Shown: one piece after another, positions 5,892-39,694 of the stretch | Layout: every line of letters starts with the position of its first letter | How positions within the stretch are numbered: the first letter of the stretch is position 1 | Origin: a virus | IMG/VR virus record: IMGVR_UViG_3300029343_000516 | Reading direction: 5' to 3' (one strand) | Length of the DNA: 64,000 bases | Notes under the pieces: generated by a model | What the model saw: the letters and a program-made list of their open reading frames with translations, nothing else | What the model was told of the DNA's origin: nothing | The model's database searches: none | Program-made: the position numbers and the translations under genes

Positions 5892-6626
5892 TTATTCTCT
5901 TATTTCAAATAACTTTTCTACTGCTTTAACTCGCTTTGTATTGTCAATCGTTCTTTTGACTTCCTGTTGCCAAATACATTCCCATTCTGAAGGAGCTTCA
6001 TGCTCACTGACTAAGACAATATTCCTCTCACTCATCTTCTCAGCCCAATTCCAAAATCTGTCATAATCAAAGTTCTTACTTGATCCATATTGTTTCGTAC
6101 CCTTATATGGAATATCGCAATAAAATAAGCAGTCAACTTTATCAGAATATAACTCTTCATAATCTCCACATTGGAATTGAATATCTTCTAACCTTGGAAT
6201 TTGTTCTAACAAATTTCTCTTAGCTTCGTCATAATAATTTCTTTCAGTTCCAGCTTTTGTATGTACGATACCTGAGTAACCGCCATCAAAGAATCTGCCG
6301 TTATAACTTGAGAGAAAACCAACTGCTCCAATATACCAATCAGGATATGTAGACAATCTTTTGTTAAAGCACTCTCTTACATCTGAATAGTGTTCTTTTG
6401 TAATAAATTCTGGGAGATTTTGAATCTGATTTAGATTCTTGAACATTTCAATAAGATATTTATGATTGTCAGAAGCGATTTTTGTGTCACACTGAACTTT
6501 GTCGATTACATTACAACCACCGCAAAATGGCTCTATGTATGTTTTGATATTATAATCTCGCAATCTTTCTTGAATAATCGGTAAAATATTATCAACTATA
6601 CGAGATTTTGAACCCATATATTTCAT
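5892..6626 (-). CDS. dam: Dam-family DNA adenine methyltransferase (D12 class N6-A MTase)
   Basis: N-terminal MKYMGSKSR (Dam YxGxK motif), FCGGCNV (SAM-binding motif I) and DIPY (DPPY catalytic motif IV). 244 aa. Confidence 0.75.
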   Translation of the reverse strand: MKYMGSKSRIVDNILPIIQERLRDYNIKTYIEPFCGGCNVIDKVQCDTKIASDNHKYLIEMFKNLNQIQNLPEFITKEHYSDVRECFNKRLSTYPDWYIGAVGFLSSYNGRFFDGGYSGIVHTKAGTERNYYDEAKRNLLEQIPRLEDIQFQCGDYEELYSDKVDCLFYCDIPYKGTKQYGSSKNFDYDRFWNWAEKMSERNIVLVSEHEAPSEWECIWQQEVKRTIDNTKRVKAVEKLFEIRE

Positions 6627-9916: not shown

Positions 9917-10654
9917 TTACGCCTGATACACAAAACTTGGCATTGGCTGTAATTTAAACAGATTTTTCTCATGCATTGAATCAATCTTAGCTTTTACTTC
10001 CTCACTTGGCTCAATTCCATCTCTGATATATGCATCTAATTCAGCATAAGTAAATCCAAGGTTATCTTCATCAGTCTTTCCACAAAGACCATCGGTAGGT
10101 GTCTTATCAACTAATTCTGACGGAAGCCCTAACTCACGACCGATAGCTTTAACCTCTGTTACTGTAAGATTTTCTAGTGGACTAAAATCACCAGCAGCAT
10201 CGCCAAACTTGCTACAATATCCAACCCAATTTTCTGAAAGATTACACGTATTAGCGACACGACCATTTACTGTCTGTGATACTGCATAAAGTGTAGCCAT
10301 ACGAATACGAGCAGGAAGATTTGTTATTGTCTGAATTGATAACTCTTCATCTAATGATGTTTTAATTTCATATTCAGTAACATTCACAATTGTTCCGACT
10401 GGAATAATAGTACGTGGAATGTCTAAAAAACTGCAAAGTTTACGACTATATTCAATATCTCTTTGTCTTCCCTGTGGCATCATCACACCAAAAACTCTAT
10501 CCTTGCCAAGAGCTTCACAACATAAGCCAGCAACAACGCTTGAATCCTTACCGCCAGAAATTCCAACTACTGCCATACAATCTTTACCATTCTGTTCAAA
10601 CCAATCTCTAATCCACTCTACGATTTCATTCTTTACTTTCTTAGCATCAAACAT
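9917..10654 (-). CDS. nadE: NH3-dependent NAD+ synthetase
   Basis: PP-loop SGGKDSS. KFGDAAGDFSPL and PTDGL...EDNLGFTYAELDAY align with E. coli NadE (KYGDGGTDINPL; PTADLEDD...LGVTYDNIDDYLEG). 245 aa. Confidence 0.85.
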   Translation of the reverse strand: MFDAKKVKNEIVEWIRDWFEQNGKDCMAVVGISGGKDSSVVAGLCCEALGKDRVFGVMMPQGRQRDIEYSRKLCSFLDIPRTIIPVGTIVNVTEYEIKTSLDEELSIQTITNLPARIRMATLYAVSQTVNGRVANTCNLSENWVGYCSKFGDAAGDFSPLENLTVTEVKAIGRELGLPSELVDKTPTDGLCGKTDEDNLGFTYAELDAYIRDGIEPSEEVKAKIDSMHEKNLFKLQPMPSFVYQA

Positions 10655-10670
10655 TTATATATTCTCCTTT

Positions 10671-11297
10671 CTACATTCGATTCATCACATCATAGAACCG
10701 AATTAAATACTCATATACATTTCTAGGAACTAATTCTTTTACCTTTTCAAATTCACCCTTTTCACATAAATCTCTAACCAAACTTGAAGAAGTATGATTT
10801 TTTGGTATCTGAATTTCTGTGAAGTGATCTTTATATTCCATAAGATTTGCTTCTCTTAAAGCAGTCTCAAGATTCTGACCTTCTCTCACACATGCTACAA
10901 AATTATATTCCTCAACAAACGGTTTCCAATTATACCAAGTTGTAAGTGGTTCAATATTATCCATTCCTAAACAAATATAGTATTCGTTGAAGATATAATC
11001 TTTTTCATTTATATCTCTTATCTGAGTAATAGTATTGTATGTCCTCTGTGGAAAGAAGCTGGTTGTTTCAACTTCGGATGCCCACATATTATTTTCCTCA
11101 CAATTTGGCATTGAATTAATCAGCGATACTCGACAATATCCAGGTATCAAAGTCTTTTTCTTCGCAACATATGTATCATGTGCAGGAATAAACAATATAG
11201 CATCAGCATTAACCGCTTTTTTAGCAGTCAATGCCATATCAACATGGGCGTTGGTAATTGGATTAAAACTTCCTGGTATAAGTAAAATTTTATTCAT
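10671..11297 (-). CDS. nadD: nicotinate/nicotinamide mononucleotide adenylyltransferase
   Basis: N-terminal LLIPGSFNPITNAH is the (H/T)xGH nucleotidyltransferase motif of NadD/NMNAT. 208 aa, flanked by nadE and pncB. Confidence 0.8.
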   Translation of the reverse strand: MNKILLIPGSFNPITNAHVDMALTAKKAVNADAILFIPAHDTYVAKKKTLIPGYCRVSLINSMPNCEENNMWASEVETTSFFPQRTYNTITQIRDINEKDYIFNEYYICLGMDNIEPLTTWYNWKPFVEEYNFVACVREGQNLETALREANLMEYKDHFTEIQIPKNHTSSSLVRDLCEKGEFEKVKELVPRNVYEYLIRFYDVMNRM

Positions 11298-12498
11298 GAT
11301 TCATTCTCCAATTAATACATCTCTTTAGATAATCAACATAATCAGGGTTTTTACACATACCTTTACCTTCTACATCAGACACTTTTGCAACATCCATACC
11401 GTTACATTTAGTGGTTTTCATTACAATATTTAAAACAGGAACATCTGTGTCATTACTCAAATAAGTACCAATTCCAAATGCAACGTTTACTCTATCATGG
11501 AAGTGTCTGAATAACTTATCAGCTCTTTCAAAATCAAGACTGTCACTAAACAGAAGTGTCTTTGTCTTAGGATTGATACCAAGTGACTCATAATGATTAA
11601 TCATCTTTTCACCCCATTCAATCGGATCTCCACTATCATGTCTTACACCACTGAATAATGTTGCATATGTCAACTGAAAATCTTTCAAGAAACAATCAGT
11701 TGTAATTGTGTCTGTGAGAGCAATACCATTTAACACACCATACTCTCTAACCCATGCGTCTAAGGCATACCAGTTTGAATATGCTGGATTGTGCTTGTGA
11801 TTTCCCTGACCAGAACACATAATCCATTCATGAGCCATAGTTCCAACAGGCGTGAGATTATATTTCTTTGCGAGATATACATTAGATGTACCAACAAATT
11901 TAGATGGACTGTGTAATGTATCATTCAAATGTGAAAACTTCTCAACAGCTAACTCCTGTGCTTCAGCAGAAAGTCTTCTTCTAAGACCAAATTCAGAAAA
12001 TGTACCAGCGTACCAATGACCGCTTCTGAGATTTTCATACTTTTCATCTAATCTCTTTTTGAAACTATTAAGCAATTCCTCATAGTTATATGCCATTCTA
12101 AAATATACTTCGTTCACAATCGCAAGTGTAGGAATCTCATACATAGATGTATTAAGCCATGTACCAAATGTTTCGATAGAAAGACCGCAATCTGAATCTG
12201 TTGTAATCTCAAAATCCTCATATCTGGGCTGCCATAATCTTAAAAAATCAACATACGAGCCCTTTATCCATTTGATATTGTCAAGGTAAGTAAGTTCATC
12301 TTCTGTGAATCTCAAACCACAATATAATTTAATCTGTCTGCGAATCTCTTCTACCATTTCTTGTGTAAAGTGAACATCCTTATTACGACATTTAAAACTC
12401 CAAGTGGTTTTATAATCACTAAACTGATGATAAATAGCCTGTCCCATACTTAATTTGTACATATCGGTTTCTAATAAACTTGTAATAATCTGCTCCAT
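11290..12498 (-). CDS. pncB: nicotinate phosphoribosyltransferase
   Basis: LLETDMYKLSMGQAIYHQF matches E. coli PncB LLDTDAYKLHMQQAVFHHY, and the roughly 400 aa length fits. I placed the start at the internal Met (MEQIITSLL), which has SD GAAGGAAA. The longer listed ORF start would read through the upstream gene. Confidence 0.8.
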   Translation of the reverse strand: MEQIITSLLETDMYKLSMGQAIYHQFSDYKTTWSFKCRNKDVHFTQEMVEEIRRQIKLYCGLRFTEDELTYLDNIKWIKGSYVDFLRLWQPRYEDFEITTDSDCGLSIETFGTWLNTSMYEIPTLAIVNEVYFRMAYNYEELLNSFKKRLDEKYENLRSGHWYAGTFSEFGLRRRLSAEAQELAVEKFSHLNDTLHSPSKFVGTSNVYLAKKYNLTPVGTMAHEWIMCSGQGNHKHNPAYSNWYALDAWVREYGVLNGIALTDTITTDCFLKDFQLTYATLFSGVRHDSGDPIEWGEKMINHYESLGINPKTKTLLFSDSLDFERADKLFRHFHDRVNVAFGIGTYLSNDTDVPVLNIVMKTTKCNGMDVAKVSDVEGKGMCKNPDYVDYLKRCINWRMNHE

Positions 12499-12499
12499 A

Positions 12500-13054
12500 T
12501 TAATTTCCTTCTTTCTTGATTTGATTAAATATTGTTCTAATATCATATTCTCTGTTTTCGTACTCATAAAACAGATTAATATACTTATCAATAAAAGCCA
12601 TGTCATTTGGATGCATTGCAATTGGTTTACTTTTCTTAGATTCCCACCATTTTAATTCCTTCTCAAAATTAAATGATTTACCATGATATGCTCTACCTGC
12701 TCCAAGATAATCACAAAGCATTTCTTTTTTATACTTCATTGGCATTTCAATAGGATTTCCACCATTATCAAAATTGTCCTGCCAATATTCGTAATGGTGC
12801 TTGTTTCTTCCTTTATGGTGCATCCAAGCTGCTGACCAACCATTCTCTTTCTTGCAAGCATCTATTGGACTTGAAGTACCTTGATAATACTTAACACTCT
12901 CCCAAAATTCCGTTGGAGAAAATTTAGATAAATCATGTACTAACCCTTGAAATGGAATTCCCACTTTACAGCAATAGTAGAACACCCAATGTTTATGCGT
13001 ACAGACTTTCTTAAAATGTCTGAAAGTATTAATGATATAATTCTTATACTTCAT
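12500..13054 (-). CDS. HD-domain metal-dependent phosphohydrolase-like protein
   Basis: H...HD pattern (THKHW ... GLVHDLSKF ... HHKGRNKHH). Start placed at MKYKNY, which has SD GGAGAG. Embedded between pncB and a radical SAM gene. Confidence 0.5.
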   Translation of the reverse strand: MKYKNYIINTFRHFKKVCTHKHWVFYYCCKVGIPFQGLVHDLSKFSPTEFWESVKYYQGTSSPIDACKKENGWSAAWMHHKGRNKHHYEYWQDNFDNGGNPIEMPMKYKKEMLCDYLGAGRAYHGKSFNFEKELKWWESKKSKPIAMHPNDMAFIDKYINLFYEYENREYDIRTIFNQIKKEGN

Positions 13055-13688
13055 TATTCTCTCCAATCTTTCTATACTCCGTATATACTTTGTTTTCACA
13101 GTAATACAAGTTATAATCACACTGTTCAATGTACCACCATAACTTCTGATGTCCTTCTTTAAGATATTCTCTACAATAATCTGTTTCCTGATAGTGATTA
13201 TCTACCATCTGTCTGAAACTCAACTCATCAATAATACCTGAGTTATGACAATATACTGCTATTCTGTTAATTAAATCCTCTGTGAAATTTTCCGTGACCA
13301 CAAATACAACTCTGACAATTTCGTTTTTTAATCGCTTGATGGATTTTAATTGTTTAAAATCATGTAAATGGTATACAACTCTGTCAAAATATGCATATGG
13401 TGCATCTTTTACATTTGGCATACTTGTATGTAGCTCTATCTGAACTCTATGTAAAGTTATATCGAAGAATTTCCTATACCACTCTACATTATTTTCTAAA
13501 TTCCATAATGGATCTCCACCACCAGATATTGATACCCAATTACACTGATTTTTCTTAATCTCCTCTTCCAAAGAGTTCAATCCATCAATCGTACTCTTTG
13601 GAATCTGAAGGTTATTATTCTTTACAATGCAATATGGACATGAATAGTGGCATCCAAAATTGGTTATCACACTCATGTACTTATCCAT
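13044..13688 (-). CDS. radical SAM protein (small, NrdG/PflA/QueE-like activase fold)
   Basis: N-terminal CxxxCxxC cluster (FGCHYSCPYC) and ISGGGDPL (the GGEPL-like SAM motif). 214 aa. Confidence 0.7.
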   Translation of the reverse strand: MDKYMSVITNFGCHYSCPYCIVKNNNLQIPKSTIDGLNSLEEEIKKNQCNWVSISGGGDPLWNLENNVEWYRKFFDITLHRVQIELHTSMPNVKDAPYAYFDRVVYHLHDFKQLKSIKRLKNEIVRVVFVVTENFTEDLINRIAVYCHNSGIIDELSFRQMVDNHYQETDYCREYLKEGHQKLWWYIEQCDYNLYYCENKVYTEYRKIGENNEV

Positions 13689-13691
13689 ATT

Positions 13692-14201
13692 CTACTCTCC
13701 AATCACTTCAATCTGACAACTTTTCATAACTTCCATAGCCGCTTTATGTTTATCAGGTGTGACTCCTGCACAGCAACTTGCATCTACTGTGACATTAATA
13801 AATGGATAATCAGCTTTAATAATTAAAGCATTTGATACTACACAAATTTCGCTACAAAGACCAATAAGTTCTATATCATTGTTAAATCCAAAGTCAGTCC
13901 AATGTGTCCAACCAAAAGATTCCTTATTGATATATGCACAATTTGGAACTTCTAATCCGTCTGCAATCTGCCATCCATGAGTATTGTAAATACAATGTTC
14001 AACTGGTAACTTGATACCTTCTGGTGTACTTAAATAGTTTTCATAATGTGTATCTCTTGTGAAAATAATTCTATCTCCACGATTATAATATTCTTCAATT
14101 TTCTTCTTGACATTTGGAACAATTGCCTGTGCTTCCTTTGTACCGAGTGAGCCATCAATAAAATCATTCTGCATATCAATTACAATTAATGTTTTGCTCA
14201 T
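13692..14201 (-). CDS. pncA: nicotinamidase (isochorismatase-family cysteine hydrolase)
   Basis: LIVIDMQNDF signature (catalytic Asp) plus the conserved Lys and Cys (LCSEICV) of the isochorismatase/PncA family. 169 aa. Confidence 0.75.
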   Translation of the reverse strand: MSKTLIVIDMQNDFIDGSLGTKEAQAIVPNVKKKIEEYYNRGDRIIFTRDTHYENYLSTPEGIKLPVEHCIYNTHGWQIADGLEVPNCAYINKESFGWTHWTDFGFNNDIELIGLCSEICVVSNALIIKADYPFINVTVDASCCAGVTPDKHKAAMEVMKSCQIEVIGE

Positions 14202-14693: not shown

Positions 14694-16202
14694 TTAATCC
14701 ACTTGTGGCTGATGAAAATTTACCATCTTCTCATCTGTACAAATATATGTATTGTCATACTGAGCCTTATATAAATGCTCAATCAACAAAGAGATGCAAG
14801 TTGTCACTATACTGTTACCGCTTTGTTTATATCCCTGAGTATCAGACATTCCAACTGCTTTACAGTTCTCATAATCAATATCATCGAATCCCATGAGCCT
14901 GTGGCACTCTTTTGGCGTGAGCTTCCTCACAACTCTTAAATTGTCTCTTTCAACTTTTGGTTCTGTATTACCGCCACCACAAGTATGCATAGCTGGTGCA
15001 ATTCCATCTTCGCTATATACTCTGCGAGACTGTTCATGCATTCTCTGAAACTTTTCGCTGCATAAATCAGCAATATGTATTGGTTCGTTTGAGTCGGCAA
15101 GAATCTGTTTTGGCTGTTTATAATCGGTTGCCACTAAAGTACCCATTACTGAATCCTGCTGATAAACTAAATCTCTGTTACCTAATCTGGTACAATTTTG
15201 TCCAATTGTTGTTCCTACTACATTCTTTTCAAATTTTGGATCTGTTATCTGAAGTCTTTTCTGTACTTCATCAGATAAGAAATATTTCTCCAGAACACTG
15301 CTATCTGTTTCTAATAAATCCTTTAATCTGATTCCTGTATCAAAAGGCTGTGGAAATTCAAAAGACTTGGTATCAATATCCTTACGAATAGAGATACAGA
15401 AGATTCTATTTCGATTCTGTGGAATACCTGTATTCTTTGCATTGATTGTCTGATAATATGAGTTATATCCCAAGTTATCAAGCCGAATCAGCCAATCCTT
15501 AAAACTGTCAATATACTTCTTTGATACAAGAGCATCTACATTCTCCATAAGCAAATACTTTGGTAATGTATTATTCTCTTTTGCTTTTACAAGAAGTCTC
15601 TCAACTTCATACAATAAACCTGAACGAGTTGATTTAATGTTGTGGTTGCCACAATTAGGGCATGTATAACGAGTATCTACGTCTAATTCAGATGGATCAT
15701 ATTCACAACCACAATCATGACATGTCCACTTTAATCCTTCCTGCTTACCGGCGATTGACAAATCTGTACATGGAGTCGAGTATGTAAGTAAATCACTATA
15801 TGGCAGTGACTCAATCTGCATCATATCGCCAAGATTATGTGAAATATGGTCTGCTAACCAATATTTCTCAATACCTTTTGCCTTGTTCTTCTTTCGTGAA
15901 AGCTTCTCCCAATCATACGGAACATCTTTCTTAAAATCATATCCAAGTCTCTTATCTGTAAGCTGTTTTACCATTTCTTCTTTACTTGGATAATCTTCAT
16001 AATTTTCAATCATCTCATTAGTTAATCCACAATGAATTGCAGCATAACTAACTACTACTTCTTTGTCTAAATCTGCTGTTGCAATCATATTTGCATTGAA
16101 GAGATGAGTATTATCAATTCCCTTCATCTGCGCACCAATACCACTGCAAAGCTCAATTACACTTAACTCACAATAATTATTTTTTTCTTTATTCTCTGTC
16201 AA
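14694..16202 (-). CDS. dcm: DNA (cytosine-5)-methyltransferase
   Basis: Motif I LCSGIGA (FxGxG), motif IV TPCTDLS (PC), motif VI LMENV, RKLTPKECHRLMGF and motif X GNSIV. An inserted zinc ribbon (CHDCGC ... CPNCG). Only TTG is available as a start, at 16200-16202. Confidence 0.85.
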   Translation of the reverse strand: MTENKEKNNYCELSVIELCSGIGAQMKGIDNTHLFNANMIATADLDKEVVVSYAAIHCGLTNEMIENYEDYPSKEEMVKQLTDKRLGYDFKKDVPYDWEKLSRKKNKAKGIEKYWLADHISHNLGDMMQIESLPYSDLLTYSTPCTDLSIAGKQEGLKWTCHDCGCEYDPSELDVDTRYTCPNCGNHNIKSTRSGLLYEVERLLVKAKENNTLPKYLLMENVDALVSKKYIDSFKDWLIRLDNLGYNSYYQTINAKNTGIPQNRNRIFCISIRKDIDTKSFEFPQPFDTGIRLKDLLETDSSVLEKYFLSDEVQKRLQITDPKFEKNVVGTTIGQNCTRLGNRDLVYQQDSVMGTLVATDYKQPKQILADSNEPIHIADLCSEKFQRMHEQSRRVYSEDGIAPAMHTCGGGNTEPKVERDNLRVVRKLTPKECHRLMGFDDIDYENCKAVGMSDTQGYKQSGNSIVTTCISLLIEHLYKAQYDNTYICTDEKMVNFHQPQVD

Positions 16203-17551: not shown

Positions 17552-17995
17552 TCACCTCTTACATACCAAAATCTCAACATCTGTATCCGCAAAAATGTTT
17601 TTAATCTGTTCAGAGACATCATTCCAGTTCAATCTATCTAAGCCACAACCAATTACAGGCATTGCAATCTTCTTGATATTATTCTCCAAACAAATCTGTT
17701 TCATCTTTTCAAGTGCAAGTCTCATTGTAATTGTTGTTGGTTTGTGAAAATATCTCTCTTTTGTAATAAGATTTAATACCCTATCTTCTAATAGACAATC
17801 ACCACCAATCCTCTTATGAGTATACCGGTCAAAATAATATGGATATTTTGTCAGCAACCTTCTCTTCATATCAAACCTTTTATTGAACTCAACTACAATT
17901 CCTTTACCCATTCCAAAATCTGCACTGATACAATGTGCTAAATAATAATCTTCTGGTACTGTAAACAAGTCTTTATTTTCTTCTCTATATTTCAC
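17552..17995 (-). CDS. macro domain protein, Poa1p/TARG1(OARD1)-type ADP-ribose-1''-phosphate phosphatase / ADP-ribosyl hydrolase
   Basis: [19 protein letters not shown] and [21 protein letters not shown] align closely with human OARD1/TARG1 ([40 protein letters not shown]). 147 aa. Confidence 0.8.
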   Translation of the reverse strand: [147 protein letters not shown]

Positions 17996-18432: not shown

Positions 18433-19173
18433 TCACATCCATTTATCAATCTCGCTAAACACATTGCCTAGCGAATCAACAATCGTCAGATCCGTATCTT
18501 CATTCATTAACACTTGAATTTTTTCCCTATTGATAATAACCAAATGCCTACCACTGAAATACGAAATATAATTCGCTGCTGGATAAACTTTTAATGAAGT
18601 GCCACCAATAATCAACATTTCAGCATCTCGAATGGCTCTGATTGCCCTATTTACCGCATCATTAGGAAGATTTTCTCCATATAAAGTTACGTCAGGTCTA
18701 ATCAGACCACCACATTCACACTTTGGGATAGCTTCTTTAGTGTTAAACAAGAAATCTGAATGATATTCCATTTTACATTTACTACAATAATTCCTCTGAG
18801 TAGTTCCATGAATTTCAAATACATTCTTACTGCCAGCTTTTTGATGAAGCCCATCAATGTTCTGTGTAACAATAGCCTTCAACTTACCTATTTCTTCCAT
18901 CTTAGCAAGTACCTTATGAGTAATATTTGGCTCAATATTTCTTGTATCCATCTTCTGACGATAGAACTCATAGAATACCTTTGGATTGTTATATAAGCAT
19001 TCTCGACTCAAAAGATACTCTGGCTCGTATCTATCAAACTGAACGTCATGCTGATTATATAACCCATCCTTAGAACGAAAGTCTGGAATACCACTTTCAG
19101 TAGATACACCTGCTCCACCAAAGAATACAATATTATTTGATTCTTCTATATATTCTCTTAATTTTTCGTACAT
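18433..19173 (-). CDS. cobB: NAD-dependent protein deacylase, Sir2/CobB sirtuin family
   Basis: GAGVSTESGIPDFR, TQNIDGLH, HG, a Zn-binding Cys4 (CSKC ... CECGG) and GTSLKVYPAA are all canonical sirtuin motifs. 246 aa. Confidence 0.85.
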   Translation of the reverse strand: MYEKLREYIEESNNIVFFGGAGVSTESGIPDFRSKDGLYNQHDVQFDRYEPEYLLSRECLYNNPKVFYEFYRQKMDTRNIEPNITHKVLAKMEEIGKLKAIVTQNIDGLHQKAGSKNVFEIHGTTQRNYCSKCKMEYHSDFLFNTKEAIPKCECGGLIRPDVTLYGENLPNDAVNRAIRAIRDAEMLIIGGTSLKVYPAANYISYFSGRHLVIINREKIQVLMNEDTDLTIVDSLGNVFSEIDKWM

Positions 19174-19183
19174 AGTTCTTACC

Positions 19184-19435
19184 TCACTCTATCATTTCAA
19201 CTTTAATTCTAAATTTTGTTGTTTCTATATGTTCGCTTTCTTGATAAGGACGATTATAATCAAAGTGCTGATGTTTAACAGTCGCAATCAAGTGAGCATC
19301 ATTGCCAGAAACAAATTTCGTATCTGTCTCATAAGTATCTTCTGAACCATCACCAAGTTTAGAGTCTGTACAATATATCTGATTTGCGTCTAATGCATCT
19401 TGAATAATTCTGTAAATTTCTCCTGTATTATACAT
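19184..19435 (-). CDS. hypothetical protein (83 aa)
   Basis: ORF in the array. Confidence 0.4.
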   Translation of the reverse strand: MYNTGEIYRIIQDALDANQIYCTDSKLGDGSEDTYETDTKFVSGNDAHLIATVKHQHFDYNRPYQESEHIETTKFRIKVEMIE

Positions 19436-19445
19436 AGCTACTCCT

Positions 19446-20834
19446 TTAATACTCTATCCAACCATCTGTAATACCAGTCATCCAATAAATAAGATCTTCT
19501 CTATCATTTTTTAATCTTCCATCTATTACACGAGTTAAGATTTCATTGAGCCAGTATCCAACTTCTTTTCCACTTTTAATGAGCATTGTATCCATTACAT
19601 CTTTTCCATTAACTGCTAAATCCTTTAGAGAAAAACATTCATCGTCCTGTAAAACTTCTTCCAAAATATATCCGATATTGTCAATCTTCTGTAATCTTGT
19701 TTCCTGATTAATGTCTGCTTGTGCTTTAATATCAGCTCTACGAACATTTAATAACCTTCTGAACTGTTCTTCTCCAATTTTATTAAGCCATCTCTTGACA
19801 TATTTCTTCCCCATCTCAAAAGTTGTATCATGATAATAAACAAGCTGCACTACTTTTTCTCTTGTATCATTATCAAAACGAAGTCTTTTCATAATTGTAT
19901 CAGTCATATCAGCACTGACTCTTCCATGACCTTTAAAATGTCTAATACCATCTTCTCCATCCTGATAACAATGTGGTTTTCCTATGTCATGAAAGAACAC
20001 CGCTAATGATGTAATTAAATCTATTGAATTTAAGTCGGGTTCACAATCACATTCATAAGCTTGTACTGCATGTACTGTATGATTCCATACATCATAAATG
20101 TGATATGGATTATTCTGTTGAAAGCCAAGCATATCTTTAATTTCAGGAATGAACAACGAGAATACTTCACGGAATAATCCTATCTGTATATAAAACTCGC
20201 TTGATAATGCAATCTTACAGAACTCACTGTTGATTCTCTCAATAGATATATTCTCTAAATTCTTATACATTTTATGAATATTAAAACTCACATCAGAATC
20301 AACCACAAATCCCAGTTGTGAAGCAAACCGAATAGCACGTAAAATTCTTAAAGCATCTTCCGAAAATCTATCCTCTGCTCTACCAACACATCTGATTTTA
20401 TAATGCTCAATATCTTCCATACCATTAAACGGATTTACAAGACCAACTTCATCATTGTATGCCATCGCATTGATTGTAAAATCTCTACGCTTCAAATCTT
20501 CTTTAAGACTTCGTGTAAATGTTACGCTATCAGGTCTACGACTATCTGAGTAATTACCGTCAATTCTGTAAGTGGTGCATTCATATCCTTCACCGTCAAT
20601 TACAATGGTAATAGTTCCATGTTGTAAACCAGTTTCAATAATTCTCTTGTCCTTGAATACTTCCATCATTTCATCTGGTGTGGCAGAAGTTGTAATGTCG
20701 TAATCGTGAATTGGTCTGCCAAGAATACTATCTCTCACTGCACCACCACATAAAAATGCCTCATATCCATTATTCTGTAAAGTATGAATAATTTCATTTG
20801 CACCAGATGGAATTTCAATTTTCAATTTCTTCAT
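19446..20834 (-). CDS. cca: tRNA nucleotidyltransferase (CCA-adding enzyme) with HD domain
   Basis: Class II nucleotidyltransferase head CGGAVRDSILGRPIHDYDI (GGxVRD...DxD), HD motif FFHDIGKP. 462 aa. Confidence 0.8.
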   Translation of the reverse strand: MKKLKIEIPSGANEIIHTLQNNGYEAFLCGGAVRDSILGRPIHDYDITTSATPDEMMEVFKDKRIIETGLQHGTITIVIDGEGYECTTYRIDGNYSDSRRPDSVTFTRSLKEDLKRRDFTINAMAYNDEVGLVNPFNGMEDIEHYKIRCVGRAEDRFSEDALRILRAIRFASQLGFVVDSDVSFNIHKMYKNLENISIERINSEFCKIALSSEFYIQIGLFREVFSLFIPEIKDMLGFQQNNPYHIYDVWNHTVHAVQAYECDCEPDLNSIDLITSLAVFFHDIGKPHCYQDGEDGIRHFKGHGRVSADMTDTIMKRLRFDNDTREKVVQLVYYHDTTFEMGKKYVKRWLNKIGEEQFRRLLNVRRADIKAQADINQETRLQKIDNIGYILEEVLQDDECFSLKDLAVNGKDVMDTMLIKSGKEVGYWLNEILTRVIDGRLKNDREDLIYWMTGITDGWIEY

Positions 20835-20871: not shown

Positions 20872-21426
20872 TCACTTATTCGTTATCATATCCAAAAACA
20901 ACAAATCATCTTTCTTCAATGTGATATCATAACCTTTCCATTCTTCCATTAGCCCTCTTATATCAAATTTATGCGGAACAATAATTGCATAGCCGTGAGG
21001 AGTCTTATGTACCTCTATCTCTAATAATGGAATTTCCGAATACATAGCTATCTCATGGACAAAATCATTCATCAATAACTCATCATCCACATCAAAATCA
21101 AATAACCACTTGCCATCATCTCTGTTCTGCACTTGCAGTGCAACTGAAGCCAATGTGTGATTGAGACGTGTCATACTCAGTTTATCTCTCAGTAGTCGGA
21201 TAATAAATTCTTCTCTGATTTTATCTTCATTCCTTGAATTGACCGACCTGTATAATCTTGTCTGTTCACCAGGAACTCCTTTGGCTGCAAAACTCTTAAA
21301 TTCTTCAATTATTTTGTCTTCATTCTCTTTATATTCAAGGATTGTTTCAATTCGCCCCTTGAAGTTTGGAACATCTTTATTATCCTTGTTACGAGAACGA
21401 ATTAAATATACATATAAATTTGACAT
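20872..21426 (-). CDS. hypothetical protein (about 184 aa) immediately downstream of tpt1
   Basis: ORF starting MSNLYVYLIRSRN. Its SD GGAGAATAA coincides with the Tpt1 stop. One HxTx-like motif (HKTP), otherwise unassigned. Confidence 0.45.
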   Translation of the reverse strand: MSNLYVYLIRSRNKDNKDVPNFKGRIETILEYKENEDKIIEEFKSFAAKGVPGEQTRLYRSVNSRNEDKIREEFIIRLLRDKLSMTRLNHTLASVALQVQNRDDGKWLFDFDVDDELLMNDFVHEIAMYSEIPLLEIEVHKTPHGYAIIVPHKFDIRGLMEEWKGYDITLKKDDLLFLDMITNK

Positions 21427-21431
21427 TGTAT

Positions 21432-21974
21432 TTATTCTCCTTCTAAATAACAGATTGGTACTTCTTTTGTAAGCCATACACCATTTTGAGATAAAAAGAA
21501 TTTATATCCGTCATTATACATATCTTTTGCTCGAACCTTATAAATAAACGGTTCTCCATGTCTACTGCCAACATTTGTTGCTGTTTCAATATCTTTTGAT
21601 AGATGAACATATAAACGGCTCTTAGAGATTAATCCTTGTTTGTTGATTGAAGAACAATATTTGACACCTGTTCCATGATATAAAATATCTGGTGGCATAC
21701 ACTCTTTTAATTCTACATCAACTTTTATAGAATGACCTTGATTTGCTCTTATAAGCGTCTTTTCTCGATTAAATGAATATCTCTGTTTAGAATCTTCTTC
21801 TACAATTTTCTCAAGCATTTTCATTGTAATCGTCTGAGTTTTATTGATTCCTTTTAATAGATCTGACACGTTAGCCCAACCATGTTTGTCTAATGTGATA
21901 CCGATAACATCAGGTCTGTGTCTAAGAATTAATGCTATGTATTTGCTTAAATTATTTTGCTCTTTATTCGTCAT
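21432..21974 (-). CDS. kptA: RNA 2'-phosphotransferase Tpt1/KptA (NAD+-dependent)
   Basis: LSKYIALILRHRPDVIGITLDKHGWANVSDLL, IRANQGHS, LYHGT, YVHLS and NGVWLT align along the full length with E. coli KptA. Start placed at the internal ATG (MTNKEQ), which has a GGAGA SD. The listed longer ORF begins at TTG. Confidence 0.85.
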   Translation of the reverse strand: MTNKEQNNLSKYIALILRHRPDVIGITLDKHGWANVSDLLKGINKTQTITMKMLEKIVEEDSKQRYSFNREKTLIRANQGHSIKVDVELKECMPPDILYHGTGVKYCSSINKQGLISKSRLYVHLSKDIETATNVGSRHGEPFIYKVRAKDMYNDGYKFFLSQNGVWLTKEVPICYLEGE

Positions 21975-21978
21975 AATG

Positions 21979-22215
21979 TTATCTCCATTCTCCAATATAC
22001 TCAGAACATTCTTTTTTGAATTTTTCCAATATATGTATTAAGCTATCTATTTCATAAGAATCCTTAAATGTTATTTCAATTATTTCAGGCTTAGATATAT
22101 CAATATTGTCAGTAGTGTAGGGCAATGGTTTCATAAAGCAATCAAATCTGACGTTCAACCCTTTATGTGTCAATCTTATTTGATTGACATTTTCTTTATT
22201 TCCAACAACCTTCAA
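21979..22215 (-). CDS. hypothetical protein (78 aa), TTG start with strong SD
   Basis: ORF with SD GGAGGTGA 9 nt before TTG. First gene after palindrome copy C. Confidence 0.4.
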   Translation of the reverse strand: MKVVGNKENVNQIRLTHKGLNVRFDCFMKPLPYTTDNIDISKPEIIEITFKDSYEIDSLIHILEKFKKECSEYIGEWR

Positions 22216-22740: not shown

Positions 22741-24798
22741 TTAAAACTTAATCTTCATTACACGCTCTGTTGCGCCCTTAACCTTAACAACTAAATCTGC
22801 TCTCTTTGTCATAGAGAATCCAATTCCTGAAAGCTGATCATCAGTATCTTCTACATGGCACTTAGCACCTAAAGCCTCAAATACTCTCTTGTGCTTTTCA
22901 AGGTCACTCTTTAAGAACTCATTGTAATAGCCATTAGGATCTTCGCTATTTACACAATCCTTCAGGAAAAAGAATAAATGTCTATGACCAATTCCATCCT
23001 GCTCATCAAAATAATTTGGACTATAACTAATTACTGATACAGGAACAAACTGATTAGTGCTTACACCCCAAATCTCACGACTTGAGATAGATGAACTTCC
23101 AGATAACTTTTCCTTAATTGAGAAGTTGCCATTCTTGTCAAGTGTTACCTCTGCCACCTGAACTTTCTCACCAGTTCTCATAGGATTGCTATAATCAAAT
23201 GAATAAATCTCTCCATTGAACTCAACTTCTGCTCTAAATCCATGTCTTACTGCACCTGAATACTGATGTACAAAGAACTTATAAACACCTGGTTTCATTC
23301 TTGACAGGTCTTCCCAAGTAATATTCTCTACTGCAACCTTTCTATCTGGATGAATAATATCAACGTCTAACTGACCACCCATTCTTGAAACACTTGGCTT
23401 TCTACAATTACTAAAGAAAATTTCATTCTCATCTGGCTCAATACAATGTGCATCAAGGTCGTAATTATCATGACCATCTTCGTTCCACTGAATAGAAAAT
23501 CTGAGTACACCGTCAACATTACCGCCAGCAGCTTTTACATTCTGTTTCATATCAGAATCAGTAATGTTTCCTGAATAAGCCCAAGACAATCCATTATTCC
23601 ACTTGAACATTGTCTTAGCGTCTGGATTAACAGGTGCAACCATAGAAACAAAATTCTTCTCATGCTTATTCTCTACAAAAGCTTCAATTTCTTTTGCGGT
23701 TGGAAGTACCTTATCAATGAAATCCTGTGCTGAAATCTCTTCAACCTTAGAAAACTTCTTAGGACTTACAGCAACATCCTTTTCCATCTGACCAAAAATA
23801 TCATCTGCACCAACCATTCTTCTTGCAGCACTCTTATTTGAGAACAGTACATTATTTACAGTAATATCATTCAGATTAGCAAATCTTCTCTGTAATGAAT
23901 CCATATATCCAAGCTCTGTAATGGTCTTCTTTGCATCCTCAAGCATTTTCTTTGTAAAAATAGCCTTTGGTCTTTTATAGTTGCTCGGTGCTGTAATCTG
24001 CTCATACTTCTTAACTGCTGTGTCAAGATCCATATCCTCACTTACATTAATAAGAAGTGTTCCAATAGAATGATTTCTAATTCTACCGATAGCCATACCT
24101 GCTGTTACCGACTTCTCCCAAGCATATAAATCCTTTTCAGTATCAGAAGTCAGCTTATCATATTCTTTCTTATACTTCTTGAACTCTGTGAGTACACCTT
24201 TCCACTCTTCGCCCTTGTAAAGTGTATTTGAATTGATAAGTTCAAGAATTGTATCGAGTGCATCCATAGTAATTTCATCAAGAGAACGCTTAAATACATT
24301 TCTTGTGTCTCTGAACTGTCCCTTAACTTCCTCGTTTGAACGGCTACTTCTATTTACGAACTTGCTTGGAAGTTCTAAGAAAAAGTGATCCCACTGATGA
24401 GACTTTCCATTGATTTCCTCAAAATTAAAATCTGTACCAATCTTAGGGAACTTAGTTGTATAAATATCTGTAACTGTATGAGCTTTTACGAAAGCATCAA
24501 GTGCATCACATACTGGCTGATATGTTGTATCACCAAGATTCAGTTCCCAAATCGTATGAATCTGGTTATCCTTGATAGTTACAGCAGAACCAATATTCTT
24601 AATAAACTGTCTACAACAACTACAATCATGTTCTCTACGCTCTCTGAAAATCTCATTTGTACCAGCAGGGAAGCTATCAAGATATGTATTCCATAATTCA
24701 TCCTTATCTACATTTACCTCAAATAAATGTGTTGCCTCTTTCTGCATTTCATCGAAGTGCTTCTGTAATGCCTTCTTAAATTTCATAAATCCATCCAT
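22741..24798 (-). CDS. large hypothetical protein (685 aa)
   Basis: Longest ORF in the window. N-terminal HDCSCC cluster. No recognisable catalytic motif. Confidence 0.55.
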   Translation of the reverse strand: MDGFMKFKKALQKHFDEMQKEATHLFEVNVDKDELWNTYLDSFPAGTNEIFRERREHDCSCCRQFIKNIGSAVTIKDNQIHTIWELNLGDTTYQPVCDALDAFVKAHTVTDIYTTKFPKIGTDFNFEEINGKSHQWDHFFLELPSKFVNRSSRSNEEVKGQFRDTRNVFKRSLDEITMDALDTILELINSNTLYKGEEWKGVLTEFKKYKKEYDKLTSDTEKDLYAWEKSVTAGMAIGRIRNHSIGTLLINVSEDMDLDTAVKKYEQITAPSNYKRPKAIFTKKMLEDAKKTITELGYMDSLQRRFANLNDITVNNVLFSNKSAARRMVGADDIFGQMEKDVAVSPKKFSKVEEISAQDFIDKVLPTAKEIEAFVENKHEKNFVSMVAPVNPDAKTMFKWNNGLSWAYSGNITDSDMKQNVKAAGGNVDGVLRFSIQWNEDGHDNYDLDAHCIEPDENEIFFSNCRKPSVSRMGGQLDVDIIHPDRKVAVENITWEDLSRMKPGVYKFFVHQYSGAVRHGFRAEVEFNGEIYSFDYSNPMRTGEKVQVAEVTLDKNGNFSIKEKLSGSSSISSREIWGVSTNQFVPVSVISYSPNYFDEQDGIGHRHLFFFLKDCVNSEDPNGYYNEFLKSDLEKHKRVFEALGAKCHVEDTDDQLSGIGFSMTKRADLVVKVKGATERVMKIKF

Positions 24799-25035: not shown

Positions 25036-26619
25036 CTACTCAATAATCTTAAATGATACATCTGTTCTTCTATTCATTGCACGATGTTCCTCTGTATCAT
25101 TATCTATTACAGGATTGCTTGAACCGTTACCAACAGTTACGATTCTATCTGCTGAAATACCATTCATAATGAAGTAATTCTTAACAGCTTCCGCTCTCTG
25201 GGCTGATAACTTCTGATTGTACTCGTCCTGCGGATCTGAATTTGGATTAGGATCTGTATTACCAGCAATCTCAATAATTGCTCCATCGAGTACATTTGCA
25301 ATATCAATAAATTTATTAAGCTCCTCGGATGCGGCGGCTGAATCTGTAAACTGGGCTGTATTCTTATTAAATGTTACCGAAGCAGATCCACTTAATAATG
25401 CCTCCGTATCCTGTACTTCCTGCTTATTATCATCTGTTACCTTTACTGTGTCTGTGTTAGATACATCTGTAGCATTAAACTTGTCTGCAATGGCATTAAT
25501 ATATGTATCATCAAAAATTGTATCTACTAAATCAGCATTTACAGTCTCACCAATTGATGTCCAAACATTGCACATATCTGAATAAATAGTCTTTGCTGTG
25601 CCATTTAATAAATCAGAATTGTCTTTCCAAGTTGTGAGTTTTGCAGTAGCTGCACTTCCTGCAATATCTTCATCAGATGCAGTATTGAACATTGGCATTA
25701 CTTCTCTGATTGCTGTAAACTCATTGTCGTACATATCGGATGCTTCAAGAGAACCCTGAACAAATTTCTCTACTATCTCTGGATATGCCTCTGCAAAATT
25801 CTTATCAAATAAAATTCCATCCATTACAAGATTTGTTGAGCTTGCTGTACTAAATAATACATGTGCATCTGTCATATTCTGTGCCTGTGTTAAATAAGGC
25901 TCCCATGTAGCAGCTACATCAACTTGTCCTGCAAAAAATGCTTTTGCTGTATCATCTGCTGTTGAGAATAATACAAGATTATCAATAATATCAGATTTCT
26001 CATCGTCTGATAAATCAGAATTATTAACAAACCAAATAACTAATGTCTGTGCCTCTGAAAACTCAGGGACACCAATTTTTGCACCAACTAAATCTTTTAC
26101 TGAATTAATTGATGATTTGGCAATAATACCATCACCACCATTTGAGTAGTTTGTAATATATGGCATAATTACATCTTCACCAGCTTCTGTAAACTTTTGT
26201 GATAAAAATGCTGTTCTATTGATTGTATAGCCTGCCGCATTTAAATCACCTTTAATAAGGGCGTTGCTTGACTGTGTAGCATCATTAATAACATTGATAT
26301 TTACATTGATACCGAGTTTTCCATAAATAGAATCTGGCTGTGTTGTAAGTCCACCATTAGCGTCAATAATAGATTTCCAGCCAATCCACTCATCTAATGA
26401 AAGATTAATAGTTCCGTCACTATTAGCTTTCTTTTTATTAGAACTAGAAGATGTTGTGCCAGTTACTTTGTTCCCTGCATTACTTATCGAAGTGTTACTC
26501 TTGGTTTTAATTAACCCTGTCTTTACACCAGCGAAAACACCACCACCAATTAATGCAATAACCAAAACCATAATTAAAATTTTTGAAGCTTTGGTAAGTC
26601 TAAATCTTTTTGTACTCAT
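25036..26619 (-). CDS. ABC transporter substrate-binding protein (NMT1/SsuA-like) fused to a C-terminal OmpA-like peptidoglycan-binding domain
   Basis: N-terminal TM anchor and a periplasmic binding-protein-like middle. C-terminal NQKLSAQRAEAVKNYF...RRTDV is the OmpA/MotB signature. 527 aa. Confidence 0.6.
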   Translation of the reverse strand: MSTKRFRLTKASKILIMVLVIALIGGGVFAGVKTGLIKTKSNTSISNAGNKVTGTTSSSSNKKKANSDGTINLSLDEWIGWKSIIDANGGLTTQPDSIYGKLGINVNINVINDATQSSNALIKGDLNAAGYTINRTAFLSQKFTEAGEDVIMPYITNYSNGGDGIIAKSSINSVKDLVGAKIGVPEFSEAQTLVIWFVNNSDLSDDEKSDIIDNLVLFSTADDTAKAFFAGQVDVAATWEPYLTQAQNMTDAHVLFSTASSTNLVMDGILFDKNFAEAYPEIVEKFVQGSLEASDMYDNEFTAIREVMPMFNTASDEDIAGSAATAKLTTWKDNSDLLNGTAKTIYSDMCNVWTSIGETVNADLVDTIFDDTYINAIADKFNATDVSNTDTVKVTDDNKQEVQDTEALLSGSASVTFNKNTAQFTDSAAASEELNKFIDIANVLDGAIIEIAGNTDPNPNSDPQDEYNQKLSAQRAEAVKNYFIMNGISADRIVTVGNGSSNPVIDNDTEEHRAMNRRTDVSFKIIE

Positions 26620-31555: not shown

Positions 31556-31630
31556 CTAGGCTGGTGGGACTTGAACCCACAAAACCTGCGGTCAAAGCGC
31601 AGTGCGTCTAACCAATTTCGCCACAGCCCA
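31556..31630 (-). tRNA. tRNA-Gln (anticodon UUG), Firmicutes-like
   Basis: Cloverleaf with acceptor UGGGCUG/CAGCCUA (U1-A72, G73), D-loop with GG, anticodon stem CUGCG/CGCAG, loop CUUUGAC and T-arm GUGGG-UUCAAGU-CCCAC. Resembles B. subtilis tRNA-Gln. No encoded CCA. Confidence 0.75.
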
Positions 31631-36969: not shown

Positions 36970-37099
36970 ATCCGTTAGTGGATTAAACTATGGTAGAACT
37001 ATAGCAGCTACACATTCTGCTCTTACAAGGCAATATGTATGTACAAAGAAACAAGTACCTTGCGTACTGCACTTACATCGGGTGTGATTCAGTGCATAA

Positions 37100-37171
37100 C
37101 GGGGCTACTGGGATTCGAACCCAGAAATACATGGATCAAAACCATGTGCCTTGCCATTTGGCGATAACCCT
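37100..37171 (-). tRNA. tRNA-Gln (anticodon UUG), E. coli tRNA-Gln-like
   Basis: AGGGUUAUCGCCAAAUGGCAAGGCACAUGGUUUUGAUCCAUGUAUUUCUGGGUUCGAAUCCCAGUAGCCCCG is near-identical in architecture to E. coli tRNA-Gln (AUCGCCAAG...GGCA, loop UUUUGAU, T-arm CUGGG-UUCGAAU-CCCAG). A1·C72 mismatch, G73, no CCA. Confidence 0.75.
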
Positions 37172-37229
37172 ATAATTTATTAAATTTTGATTAAATATGT
37201 GAAAAATATGCTGAATTGCTTGAATTTAA

Positions 37230-38476: not shown

Positions 38477-38669
38477 ATTTAACGAGATCAAATGGTTGCA
38501 CTTCCATTGCTTTAGCAACCAAATCAAGTACAGCTAAGTCAGGAACAGCACTTCCATTTTCCCATTTACTGATTGTACTTGGTGCAATGTCAGACATTTT
38601 CGCAAGCCCTCTTACTGTTATTCTCTTTTCAGTTCTGATTTTCTTTCCAATATATTTAACCATAATCAC
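38466..38669 (-). CDS. XRE-family HTH transcriptional regulator (67 aa)
   Basis: ITVRGLAKMSDIAPSTISKWENG HTH_3 pattern. Convergent with, and overlapping, the plus-strand HTH gene. Confidence 0.6.
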   Translation of the reverse strand: MIMVKYIGKKIRTEKRITVRGLAKMSDIAPSTISKWENGSAVPDLAVLDLVAKAMEVQPFDLVKFIY

Positions 38670-39694
38670 ATCTCCATCAATTTCTCTTTCATTCCAACAG
38701 CTCCGTTTGCATAATTATTAACTGTTGTATTTACACTACTATGCCCCAACTGTTGTTGCACAAATGCAAGATTTCCATTCTGATTCATTATACTAGCATA
38801 ATAATGTCGCATCATATGTGGAGTAATACCATTTCCATAATTCTCAAATATCTGTTTGATATTTCTTTCCGTGGTACGTGTGCCATTCTTATTAATAAAA
38901 ACTGCTTCTTTGTCTACAATATTATTCAATGTGTTTCTATACTCTAGCCATTCTCTTAATGCTTTCAGAGCAGATCCAGTAAGATATACAGGTCTTTTTT
39001 CAGTTTCTCTTTGATATCCTTTTGGTAAAACCATAATATGTGACATATCATTAAGATCAATATATTCACTATTTTCATCTAAATGCAAATCTGATAAATC
39101 CAAACCAGCAAGTTCAGACTCTCTTATTCCAGTTCCTCTTAAGACACGAAAAATAGCAATATTCCTATTCCTTACACATTCATCCTTTTTCCACATTATT
39201 TTTTCTTCCATACCATTAAGCTGATTTTCTGTTGGAAGTTTTTGTGTTAAGTTGTTTTTAGAAGATATCCCTTTATATTTTATTTGTTTACTAAAATCTT
39301 CCATACTGTTATAAAGTTCTCTCAATAAACATTCTCTATATGAATATACATTTTTTATAAAACTTTTTATAATATTCTTTCTTGTTTCCGTTGTGGTTGG
39401 CGACATTCCATTTGTTTCCTTATATCTAAGGTATGAACTAATATTTTGTGGTCGCAAGTCGCTAAAATCAGAAACTTCTATTTCAGAAATTGATTTCTTA
39501 TTAATAATATTACTTTCAATCAACCACTGTAAAAAATCTTTAATTGCTACTAAATAATTTAACGCTCCGTTCTTGCTTTCCAACTCATTCAAGTAATCTC
39601 TTAAAAACTGTGGTGCATTTAACTCATCCAACTTCCTATTAAGCTTTTCAGCATTTTTATTTTGCACTTCTATCTTATAACACATAATTATCAC
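38666..39694 (-). CDS. int: tyrosine site-specific recombinase / integrase
   Basis: Catalytic R (VLRGTGIRESEL), HxxR (HMMRHYYAS), LGH box (LGHSSVNTT) and the Tyr nucleophile (NNY). 342 aa with an N-terminal SAM-like domain. Confidence 0.85.
   Translation of the reverse strand: MIIMCYKIEVQNKNAEKLNRKLDELNAPQFLRDYLNELESKNGALNYLVAIKDFLQWLIESNIINKKSISEIEVSDFSDLRPQNISSYLRYKETNGMSPTTTETRKNIIKSFIKNVYSYRECLLRELYNSMEDFSKQIKYKGISSKNNLTQKLPTENQLNGMEEKIMWKKDECVRNRNIAIFRVLRGTGIRESELAGLDLSDLHLDENSEYIDLNDMSHIMVLPKGYQRETEKRPVYLTGSALKALREWLEYRNTLNNIVDKEAVFINKNGTRTTERNIKQIFENYGNGITPHMMRHYYASIMNQNGNLAFVQQQLGHSSVNTTVNNYANGAVGMKEKLMEM

Follow-up and report, generated by a model that had tools for sequence, protein, structure and literature searches.

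The region described here belongs to the IMG/VR virus record IMGVR_UViG_3300029343_000516, of which a stretch of 64,000 nucleotides (nt), hereafter the window, was analyzed; all window coordinates below refer to features on the minus strand. At 18433-19173 an open reading frame (ORF) starting with ATG encodes a 246-residue sirtuin, which on its family profiles and its match to Sir2Tm is a putative class U (Sir2Tm-like) protein deacylase dependent on nicotinamide adenine dinucleotide (NAD+). The coordinates agree exactly with those of an earlier annotation made from the letters of this DNA (the sequence-only reading). A ribosome-binding region read from the letters at 19176-19190, GAGTGAGGTAAGAACT 5' of the ATG, places GAGG 8-9 nt before the start codon, and spacers of 10 nt separate the gene from both adjacent genes. 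Directly upstream lies an 83-residue ORF (19184-19435) that adjoins the sirtuin gene in 11 of 47 related loci and finds no match in Pfam, PHROG or PADLOC scans. When the small ORFs that flank the gene (p83, p66, p73, p144, p98, p124, p129, p78 and p201) are scanned permissively against the same three collections, nothing usable results, and no acetyltransferase, other partner or substrate candidate is found among them. Promoter-like sites number 53 where 64 are expected, and terminator-like sites 3 where 3.8 are expected; with neither enriched, the transcription unit cannot be defined.

We find that the protein matches the Pfam SIR2 profile PF02146 over its full length (E = 1.5e-56, 191.6 bits against a cutoff of 24, profile positions 1-180 of 180), matches phrog_2162 'Sir2' (2.6e-47), and passes the NCBIfam equivalog NF001752, 'NAD-dependent protein deacylase', with 309.6 bits (cutoff 221). 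The closest solved structure is Thermotoga maritima Sir2Tm (1yc5; E = 1.1e-45, 43% identity over 201 residues); other matches are to Archaeoglobus Sir2-Af1 and Sir2-Af2, and then to human SIRT1, SIRT3 and SIRT5 and E. coli CobB (1s5p, E = 3.7e-26). Sir2Tm, Sir2-Af1 and Sir2-Af2 are experimentally established deacetylases. The fold is assigned from these sequence matches to solved structures and not from an AlphaFold2 model, which is poor (mean predicted local distance difference test score 43.9, predicted TM-score 0.31) because all rows of its alignment, drawn from 30 phage-lineage homologs, are at least 83% identical.

Motif positions were read from the alignment to Sir2Tm, in which every catalytic, NAD+-binding and zinc-binding residue is retained; together with the full-length profiles, this confirms the canonical and complete sirtuin that the sequence-only reading had described. 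The NAD+-binding Rossmann motif G20-A21-G22-V-S24 and the cofactor-loop residues F32-R33 (19075-19116; Sir2Tm G21/A22/G23/S25/F33/R34) are invariant across 30 phage-lineage sequences. The nicotinamide-ribose pocket Q104-N105-I106-D107 and the catalytic H122 within EIHG (18808-18864) correspond to Sir2Tm Q98/N99/I100/D101 and H116, and G191-T192-S193 and N215 are likewise kept. Of the zinc-ribbon cysteines (18712-18786), C130 and C133 form a CxxC pair and C152 and C154 a CxC pair, not the textbook CxxC; the same spacing occurs in chromosomal Lachnospiraceae orthologs and is therefore a family trait, not a sign of decay. Y165-G166-E167 (18673-18681) is the counterpart of the FGE motif of Sir2Tm, which we take to bind the substrate peptide. 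Residues Y71-K74 (18952-18963) read Y-R-Q-K, a YxxK at the position where class III sirtuins carry the YxxR that recognizes succinyl and malonyl groups; YxxK is also present in all 41 cellular orthologs examined, and Sir2Tm has A...G there. The YxxK might indicate that the enzyme favors acidic acyl groups, on an alignment that is uncertain in this helix.

Among prokaryotes, scanned at one genome per species, the sirtuin has 56 relatives at 49-80% identity, mainly from Lachnospiraceae and other Clostridia, with the sirtuins of these two groups at 60-71%. The closest genome-database matches, at 80% (locus L016) and 70-71% (loci L007-L009), were considered as host genes and rejected, their contexts looking mobile or phage-like, so that only three independent syntenic groups at 60-64% identity, which neighborhood clustering places in ordinary chromosomal settings, served as chromosomal references. 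Neighbors of the latter include a Na:Ala symporter, PrsW, a LacI regulator, phosphate acetyltransferase (Pta), VTC and YitT. The NF001752 score of the window sirtuin falls inside the 283-322 bit range of chromosomal orthologs, while the sirtuins of five other phage lineages (rV5, KVP40-like phi-pp2, Streptomyces Moab, Bacillus JL and Yersinia fHe-Yen9-03) score 57-182 bits and pass no NCBIfam model. In a neighbor-joining (NJ) tree with 100 bootstraps, from which eukaryotic class I, II and IV and SirTM sequences were left out, the phage sirtuin lineage sits inside a Clostridia clade (94%) that is sister to Sir2Tm (98%) and outside Sir2-Af1, and the window sirtuin is far from the sirtuins of proteobacterial phages. 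The sequence-only reading had posed class U or CobB against class M, and a phage gene against a housekeeping gene on core host chromosome. The NJ tree and the motifs together assign the protein to class U in Frye's scheme, with SirTM membership judged by its published defining motifs and not by phylogeny (the top 60 matches of a PDB search with the Moab sirtuin were Af1, CobB and SIRT5, with no SirTM chain); the gene thus does cluster with housekeeping-type cellular sirtuins, but the region that carries it is viral.

Comparing 120 phage-lineage sirtuins with 41 cellular orthologs, we find 100 positions that are conserved and identical in both groups, and none at which the phage lineage has fixed a substitution differing from the cell-conserved residue. 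When the window gene is compared pairwise with 14 phage variants, the median ratio of nonsynonymous to synonymous substitution rates (dN/dS) is 0.063, with dS reaching about 1.9, indicating a long stay in phage genomes under strong purifying selection; the phage branch of the NJ tree shows no acceleration. As judged from these alignments, the biochemical activity is most likely unchanged from that of the ancestral deacylase.

The viral setting is evident from the window and from its relatives. All large ORFs of the 64 kilobases (kb) lie on one strand and are densely packed at about 32% G+C, two tRNA-Gln genes and an RNA ligase gene are present, and several neighboring proteins fall in phage-only PHROG families, among them a DUF8224 protein and an OmpA-like protein that resemble those of large Bacillus phages. 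At least 67 metagenomic contig blocks, with contigs of up to 373 kb, encode a 100% identical sirtuin protein, more than 100 protein clusters lie at 83-97% identity, and among IMG/VR viral genomes 46 carry the sirtuin and at least 80 the adjoining gene for a CCA-adding enzyme. Megablast of the region against deposited phage records and plasmids gives no DNA-level match, and the element is known only from metagenomes. The viral genomes that carry the sirtuin, the phage-like neighbors and the lack of a plasmid match lead us to conclude that this is a large uncultivated phage and not core host chromosome; its hosts among gut Clostridia are probably Lachnospiraceae. The isolate Clostridium sp. AF37-5 encodes a sirtuin of 80% identity that groups within the phage clade (locus L016, 6001-7716, on the 226-kb contig NZ_QUDR01000002.1), directly followed by an HAD_SAK_2 RNA-repair phosphatase and a YpsA/SLOG protein amid hypothetical genes; this locus could belong to a related phage or prophage and could thus lead to a culturable host.

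Further features of the window bear on the phage as a whole. The tRNA-Gln(UUG) genes lie at 31556-31630 and 37099-37172, and a tyrosine-integrase-like gene (38666-39694; phrog_1, 2e-32) may be a sign of a temperate lifestyle or of site-specific recombination. A 685-residue DUF8224 protein (22741-24798; phrog_1735) is about 60% identical to 'galactose-binding domain-like' proteins of Bacillus Herelleviridae, and a 527-residue NMT1/OmpA-like protein (25036-26619) is 48% identical to gp249 of Bacillus phage G, with distant matches in Lak megaphages; near this DUF8224/OmpA-like region, sister contigs carry ABC-transporter, PspA, TerD and cation-ATPase genes. DNA methyltransferases are encoded at 5892-6626 and 14694-16202, the latter a 502-residue C5 enzyme with a zinc-ribbon-like insert (weak HypA match). 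Its slot is highly variable among sister genomes, which carry one or two differing methyltransferases there, and this variability is consistent with an anti-restriction accessory region.

Downstream of the sirtuin gene the window encodes a PncA-type nicotinamidase (13692-14201; Pfam Isochorismatase 2.8e-23; Pyrococcus horikoshii nicotinamidase 1im5, E = 8.6e-15), whose D/K/C triad and DxH...H metal site align with those of 1im5, together with a nicotinate phosphoribosyltransferase (NAPRTase, 11290-12621; Pfam NAPRTase 1.5e-66), a nicotinate mononucleotide adenylyltransferase-like (NadD-like) protein (10671-11297; CTP_transf_like 1.2e-14) and the NAD synthase NadE (9917-10654; NAD_synthase 7.5e-51). 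A DUF5662 protein and a radical-SAM-like protein of 214 residues are interspersed in this module (9917-14201), which with PncA makes up a complete deamidated (Preiss-Handler) route; PncA and the module could recycle the nicotinamide released by the sirtuin to NAD+. At the same position, a related locus (L006, 14028-18679) has Pribosyltran-like and NAMPT-like genes in place of the DUF5662-NAPRT-NadD block, a pair that resembles Adps and Namat of NARP1, and NAD+-rebuilding cassettes appear to be swapped; NARP1-3 are routes to NAD+ other than the Preiss-Handler module. The module was also considered as a novelty in its own right and rejected as such, because clustered pncB-nadD-nadE genes have been published, by Li et al. 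2024 (Microbiome), for 'NAD-jumbo phages' of animal and human guts.

A macro domain of the TARG1/OARD1 and DarG type is encoded at 17552-17995 (PDB 4j5r, E = 1e-26; PADLOC DarG, 55 bits). It keeps K79 and D120, which align with K84 and D125 of TARG1 in what we take to be the numbering of the human protein. The macro gene overlaps the stop codon of the preceding 73-residue ORF (p73) by 1 nt, pointing to translational coupling to p73, and is separated from the sirtuin gene by two ORFs (437 nt), all co-directional. Co-occurrence was counted within the ±5-10 kb visible at each locus, with statistics that ignore relatedness among genomes, and 67 phage loci were anchored on the CCA-adding enzyme gene to remove ascertainment bias. 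Among these, 7 have the sirtuin, 11 the macro domain and 1 both (odds ratio 0.83, Fisher p = 1.0), which leaves 10 loci with the macro domain and no sirtuin; counted from the sirtuin, 5 of 40 viral loci with full flanks, and 1 of 34 among IMG/VR loci, have a macro domain no more than 10 kb away. Two contigs (L001 and L003) encode the 100% identical sirtuin with a 65-residue ORF where the macro domain would be, and L003 also lacks Tpt1. The more economical reading is that the macro domain is an independent accessory gene and not an obligate partner of the sirtuin; it may reverse DNA ADP-ribosylation of the DarT type, as an anti-DarT counter-defense, or clear ADP-ribose derivatives arising from Tpt1 or the sirtuin.

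Genes for RNA repair lie on the upstream side. The CCA-adding tRNA nucleotidyltransferase (19446-20834; NF009814, 318 bits, cutoff 290) is the most frequent annotated neighbor of the sirtuin in neighbor clustering, present at 20 of 47 loci, and we treat it as context, not as a partner. The NAD+-consuming RNA 2'-phosphotransferase Tpt1/KptA (21432-21995; NF002014, 245 bits, cutoff 239) belongs to a variable context, occurring in 8 of 40 sirtuin loci and independently of the sirtuin at the 67 CCA-anchored loci (Fisher p = 1.0). Between Tpt1 and the CCA-adding enzyme lies a phrog_8839 protein (20872-21477; 184-201 residues), one of the commonest upstream neighbors of the sirtuin (19 of 47 loci); it has no Pfam or PADLOC match, and its WLFDFDVDD / HKTPHGY pattern hints at a nucleotidyltransferase- or primase-like fold. 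What stands upstream of the CCA-adding enzyme is either Tpt1 with the phrog_8839 protein or the 'RNA repair pathway' protein RlaP; in locus L003 (6369-8359), for example, RlaP (PF10127) and a 320-residue protein replace the Tpt1/phrog_8839 pair at the equivalent position. This swap suggests alternative RNA-repair cassettes. With the RNA ligase (1310-2236), the CCA-adding enzyme and Tpt1 form a tRNA/RNA-repair toolkit scattered over the window.

The genes that the sequence-only reading placed around the sirtuin are thus real, in that the TARG1-like macro domain, Tpt1/KptA and, a few kilobases from an NAD+-consuming sirtuin, a phage NAD+ synthesis module are all found. The apparent 'NAD+ signalling array' of sirtuin, macro domain and Tpt1 consists of accessory cassettes that are shuffled independently and lie together here by chance, and the sirtuin is best read as a sporadic accessory gene in a hypervariable phage region, with no fixed partner.

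We propose, with a probability of roughly 60%, that the gene encodes an active NAD+-dependent lysine deacylase of class U, resembling Sir2Tm and SrtN, that a lineage of large phages of gut Clostridia captured from a host. The 43% identity to Sir2Tm and the 60-71% identity to cellular orthologs point to deacylation as the reaction. By homology to Sir2Tm, on which the sirtuin mechanism is established, NAD+ and an acyl-lysine peptide would be held between the Rossmann and zinc-ribbon domains, with His122 as the general base; transfer of the acyl group to ADP-ribose would yield deacylated lysine, nicotinamide and O-acyl-ADP-ribose. During infection, the enzyme would remove acetyl or other acyl groups from proteins of the host, of the phage or of both. 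Where the NAD+ module is present, the NAD+ consumed and the inhibitory nicotinamide released could be handled by the phage nicotinamidase and by NAPRTase-NadD-NadE; where present, the TARG1-like macro domain could also hydrolyze O-acyl-ADP-ribose, and would not be required.

Several observations weigh against this proposal. The sirtuin occurs in just 7 of 67 CCA-anchored relatives and is therefore dispensable for the lineage, and the metabolic coupling is itself partial: PncA stands no more than 10 kb away at 20 of 40 sirtuin loci, and the complete NAD+ module at 12 of 40. The tree is an NJ tree with weak internal support near the phage clade. The tRNA/RNA-repair neighbors (CCA-adding enzyme, Tpt1 or RlaP, and the HAD phosphatase of the Clostridium isolate) leave room for an RNA-related role. 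In E. coli, moreover, T4 and lambda are reportedly restricted by the CobB of the host, so that the benefit of a sirtuin to a phage is not self-evident. In favor of the proposal, a 2026 preprint describes that phage proteins are extensively acetylated in infected cells, apparently by the host, which makes a phage-encoded acyl-lysine eraser plausible, if speculative. A more specific version of the deacylase proposal, which we regard as rather unlikely in this full form, is that the captured sirtuin is an anti-acylation countermeasure that erases inhibitory lysine acyl marks imposed by the host. Its targets would be phage proteins or factors of translation and tRNA maturation, such as the co-encoded CCA-adding enzyme; the marks would arise enzymatically, or through acetyl-phosphate or acyl-CoA chemistry in butyrate-producing Clostridia; and the nicotinamidase, together with the Preiss-Handler module, would make good the NAD+ spent and lift the inhibition by nicotinamide.

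Other functions have been weighed against lysine deacylation. The sequence-only reading had suggested a writer/eraser pair. Taken as SirTM-like or toxin-antitoxin-like, such a pair would have the sirtuin attach mono-ADP-ribose to a protein and the TARG1-like macro domain take it off again. Such pairs are known in bacteria (Rack et al. 2015) and in Streptomyces phages (Iyer et al. 2022), the macro domain here is apparently active and stands in the same co-directional array, and in one related genome (L080/L118) it directly follows the sirtuin; nonetheless, this pairing is not borne out and is now very improbable, as H122 is kept in place of the SirTM glutamine, the macro domain is not a Zn-macrodomain, neither GcvH-L nor LplA2 is found among the neighbors scanned, the macro gene is coupled to p73 instead of the sirtuin, and the two genes co-occur at chance, with contigs bearing the identical sirtuin and no macro domain; a genuinely coupled pair, that of Moab, overlaps by 1 nt and uses another macro subfamily. 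That the protein might be an NADase effector, a phage-borne weapon of superinfection exclusion or abortive infection like ThsA, DSR or SIR2-HerA, is suggested by the SIR2 fold, by the defense systems that phages and prophages carry and by the integrase-like gene of the window. The best PADLOC match to a defense SIR2 is, however, a non-significant 16.6 bits (E = 6e-4) over a partial stretch, and the sirtuin is a 246-residue core with SLOG, HerA, pAgo and TIR domains neither fused to it nor encoded directly adjacent in the window; it keeps the zinc ribbon and peptide-binding motif, and the adjacent NAD+-rebuilding module would counteract depletion. We consider this reading scarcely credible, and the statement of the sequence-only reading that the protein is no degenerate SIR2 NADase-type defense effector holds.

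A role in RNA repair, proposed for most viral sirtuins by Iyer et al. 2022, deserves more weight and is still unlikely. It would have the sirtuin process RNA ends at the expense of NAD+ in the manner of KptA, for example by removing 2'-phosphates, and restore cleaved tRNAs together with the CCA-adding enzyme, Tpt1 or RlaP and the ligase. The published hypothesis fits the frequent CCA-adding enzyme beside the sirtuin, the Tpt1 or RlaP often found upstream, the RNA ligase of the window, and the HAD_SAK_2 phosphatase and YpsA SLOG protein that follow the sirtuin in its closest isolate-genome relative. It is disfavored by the distance of the window sirtuin from the proposed clade in sequence and tree, by the zinc cysteines and the passing NF001752 score that set it apart from that clade, by the absence of lineage-specific substitutions relative to chromosomal deacylases, and by the lack of statistical association with Tpt1; Tpt1 is, moreover, already encoded in the window, so that a second enzyme removing 2'-phosphates would be redundant. 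The gene could also be a redundant passenger, a recently transferred host housekeeping gene that is selectively maintained and raises host sirtuin dosage with no phage-specific role. Its patchiness among relatives, the chromosomal orthologs in likely host families and the absence of phage-specific substitutions agree with this; a dN/dS of 0.06 held across phage variants as far apart as a dS of about 1.9 argues instead for long, constrained residence, the exact protein on so many contig blocks and the many clusters of close variants also speak against a passenger, and we judge this reading improbable. A captured class U deacylase remains the reading we prefer.

Phage sirtuins are already catalogued, with phrog_2162 as their family and 164 phage records matching the window protein, and NAD+ synthesis by gut phages is published, so that the gene does not represent a new kind of system. 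What is new here is that the sirtuin of this lineage is a faithfully conserved copy of a cellular Clostridia deacylase, outside the divergent zinc-less viral clade. Should the enzyme indeed remove acyl groups from proteins of the phage or the host in the course of infection, it would offer a tractable entry to lysine acylation in the conflict between phages and gut anaerobes, a role that is almost unexplored; and if the marks erased are inhibitory and host-imposed, it would be a phage-encoded 'eraser' of post-translational restriction by the host.

Known systems resemble this one to differing degrees. NAD-jumbo phages (Li et al. 2024), like the phage of the window, are large gut phages with a Preiss-Handler cluster and several NAD+-consuming enzymes; the consumers named in the main text of that study are ligases, PARP-like proteins and dehydrogenases, and no sirtuin deacylase is mentioned there. 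SirTM and the window sirtuin have in common a sirtuin fold with a zinc domain, and each has a macro domain encoded not far away. In SirTM the catalytic HG has become QG, a GVGx[NT]TP motif is present and deacylase activity is absent, and its gene directly adjoins that of a Zn-macrodomain, with GcvH-L and LplA2 (Rack et al. 2015); in contrast, the window sirtuin has H122-G123 and, instead of GVGx[NT]TP, which occurs nowhere in its sequence, the loop G190-G191-T192-S193-L194-K195-V196, of the GTS type of deacylases, its macro domain is of the TARG1/DarG type, and profile scans of the neighboring genes in the window find no GcvH-L or LplA2 homolog. Streptomyces phage Moab likewise encodes a sirtuin with the catalytic histidine and the zinc cysteines and, nearby, a macro domain. 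Its two genes overlap by 1 nt, whereas those of the window are separated and statistically independent; the Moab macro domain belongs to the SCO6735/ALC1-like subfamily and is 25% identical to that of the window, and the Moab sirtuin is 30.6% identical to ours. The zinc-less viral clade (rV5, KVP40-like phages and the Serratia BF/Yersinia jumbo phages) is phage-encoded and has RNA-repair neighbors, as does the window sirtuin; Iyer et al. 2022, who proposed most viral sirtuins as a distinct clade acting in RNA repair, typify it by rV5, Serratia BF and SP15 and by neighboring 2H, Nudix, cREC, RNA ligase and HAD-SAK genes. No 2H, Nudix or cREC gene is detected beside the window sirtuin, identity to the rV5/KVP40-like/Yersinia-Erwinia jumbo-phage sirtuins is 23-27%, and these form a separate deep branch of the NJ tree. 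The three representatives aligned (rV5, phi-pp2 and Yen9-03) have lost all four zinc cysteines, all of which the window sirtuin keeps, and the clade fails every NCBIfam cutoff, whereas the window sirtuin passes NF001752.

Other parallels are cellular. The class III sirtuin CobB of E. coli and Salmonella has its superfamily and chemistry in common with the window sirtuin and is more distant than Sir2Tm: the window protein scores 229 bits on the CobB equivalog NF040867, below the cutoff of 320, and at the YxxR position of the CobB class it has Y71-x-x-K74. Sir2Tm (1yc5/2h4f) has the same length of 246 residues, and all NAD+-binding, catalytic and zinc residues align; it differs in its CxxC second zinc pair and FGE motif, where the window sirtuin has CxC and YGE, and in being encoded by a cell and not by a phage. 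The cellular deacylases of Clostridia and Lachnospiraceae that pass NF001752, of which Bacillus subtilis SrtN is the studied Firmicute counterpart, have the same CxxC...CxC zinc site and the same equivalog score range as the window sirtuin. Their genes sit among transporters, regulators and Pta, whereas the window copy has tRNA-repair and NAD+ genes for neighbors, in an accessory region of a phage genome.

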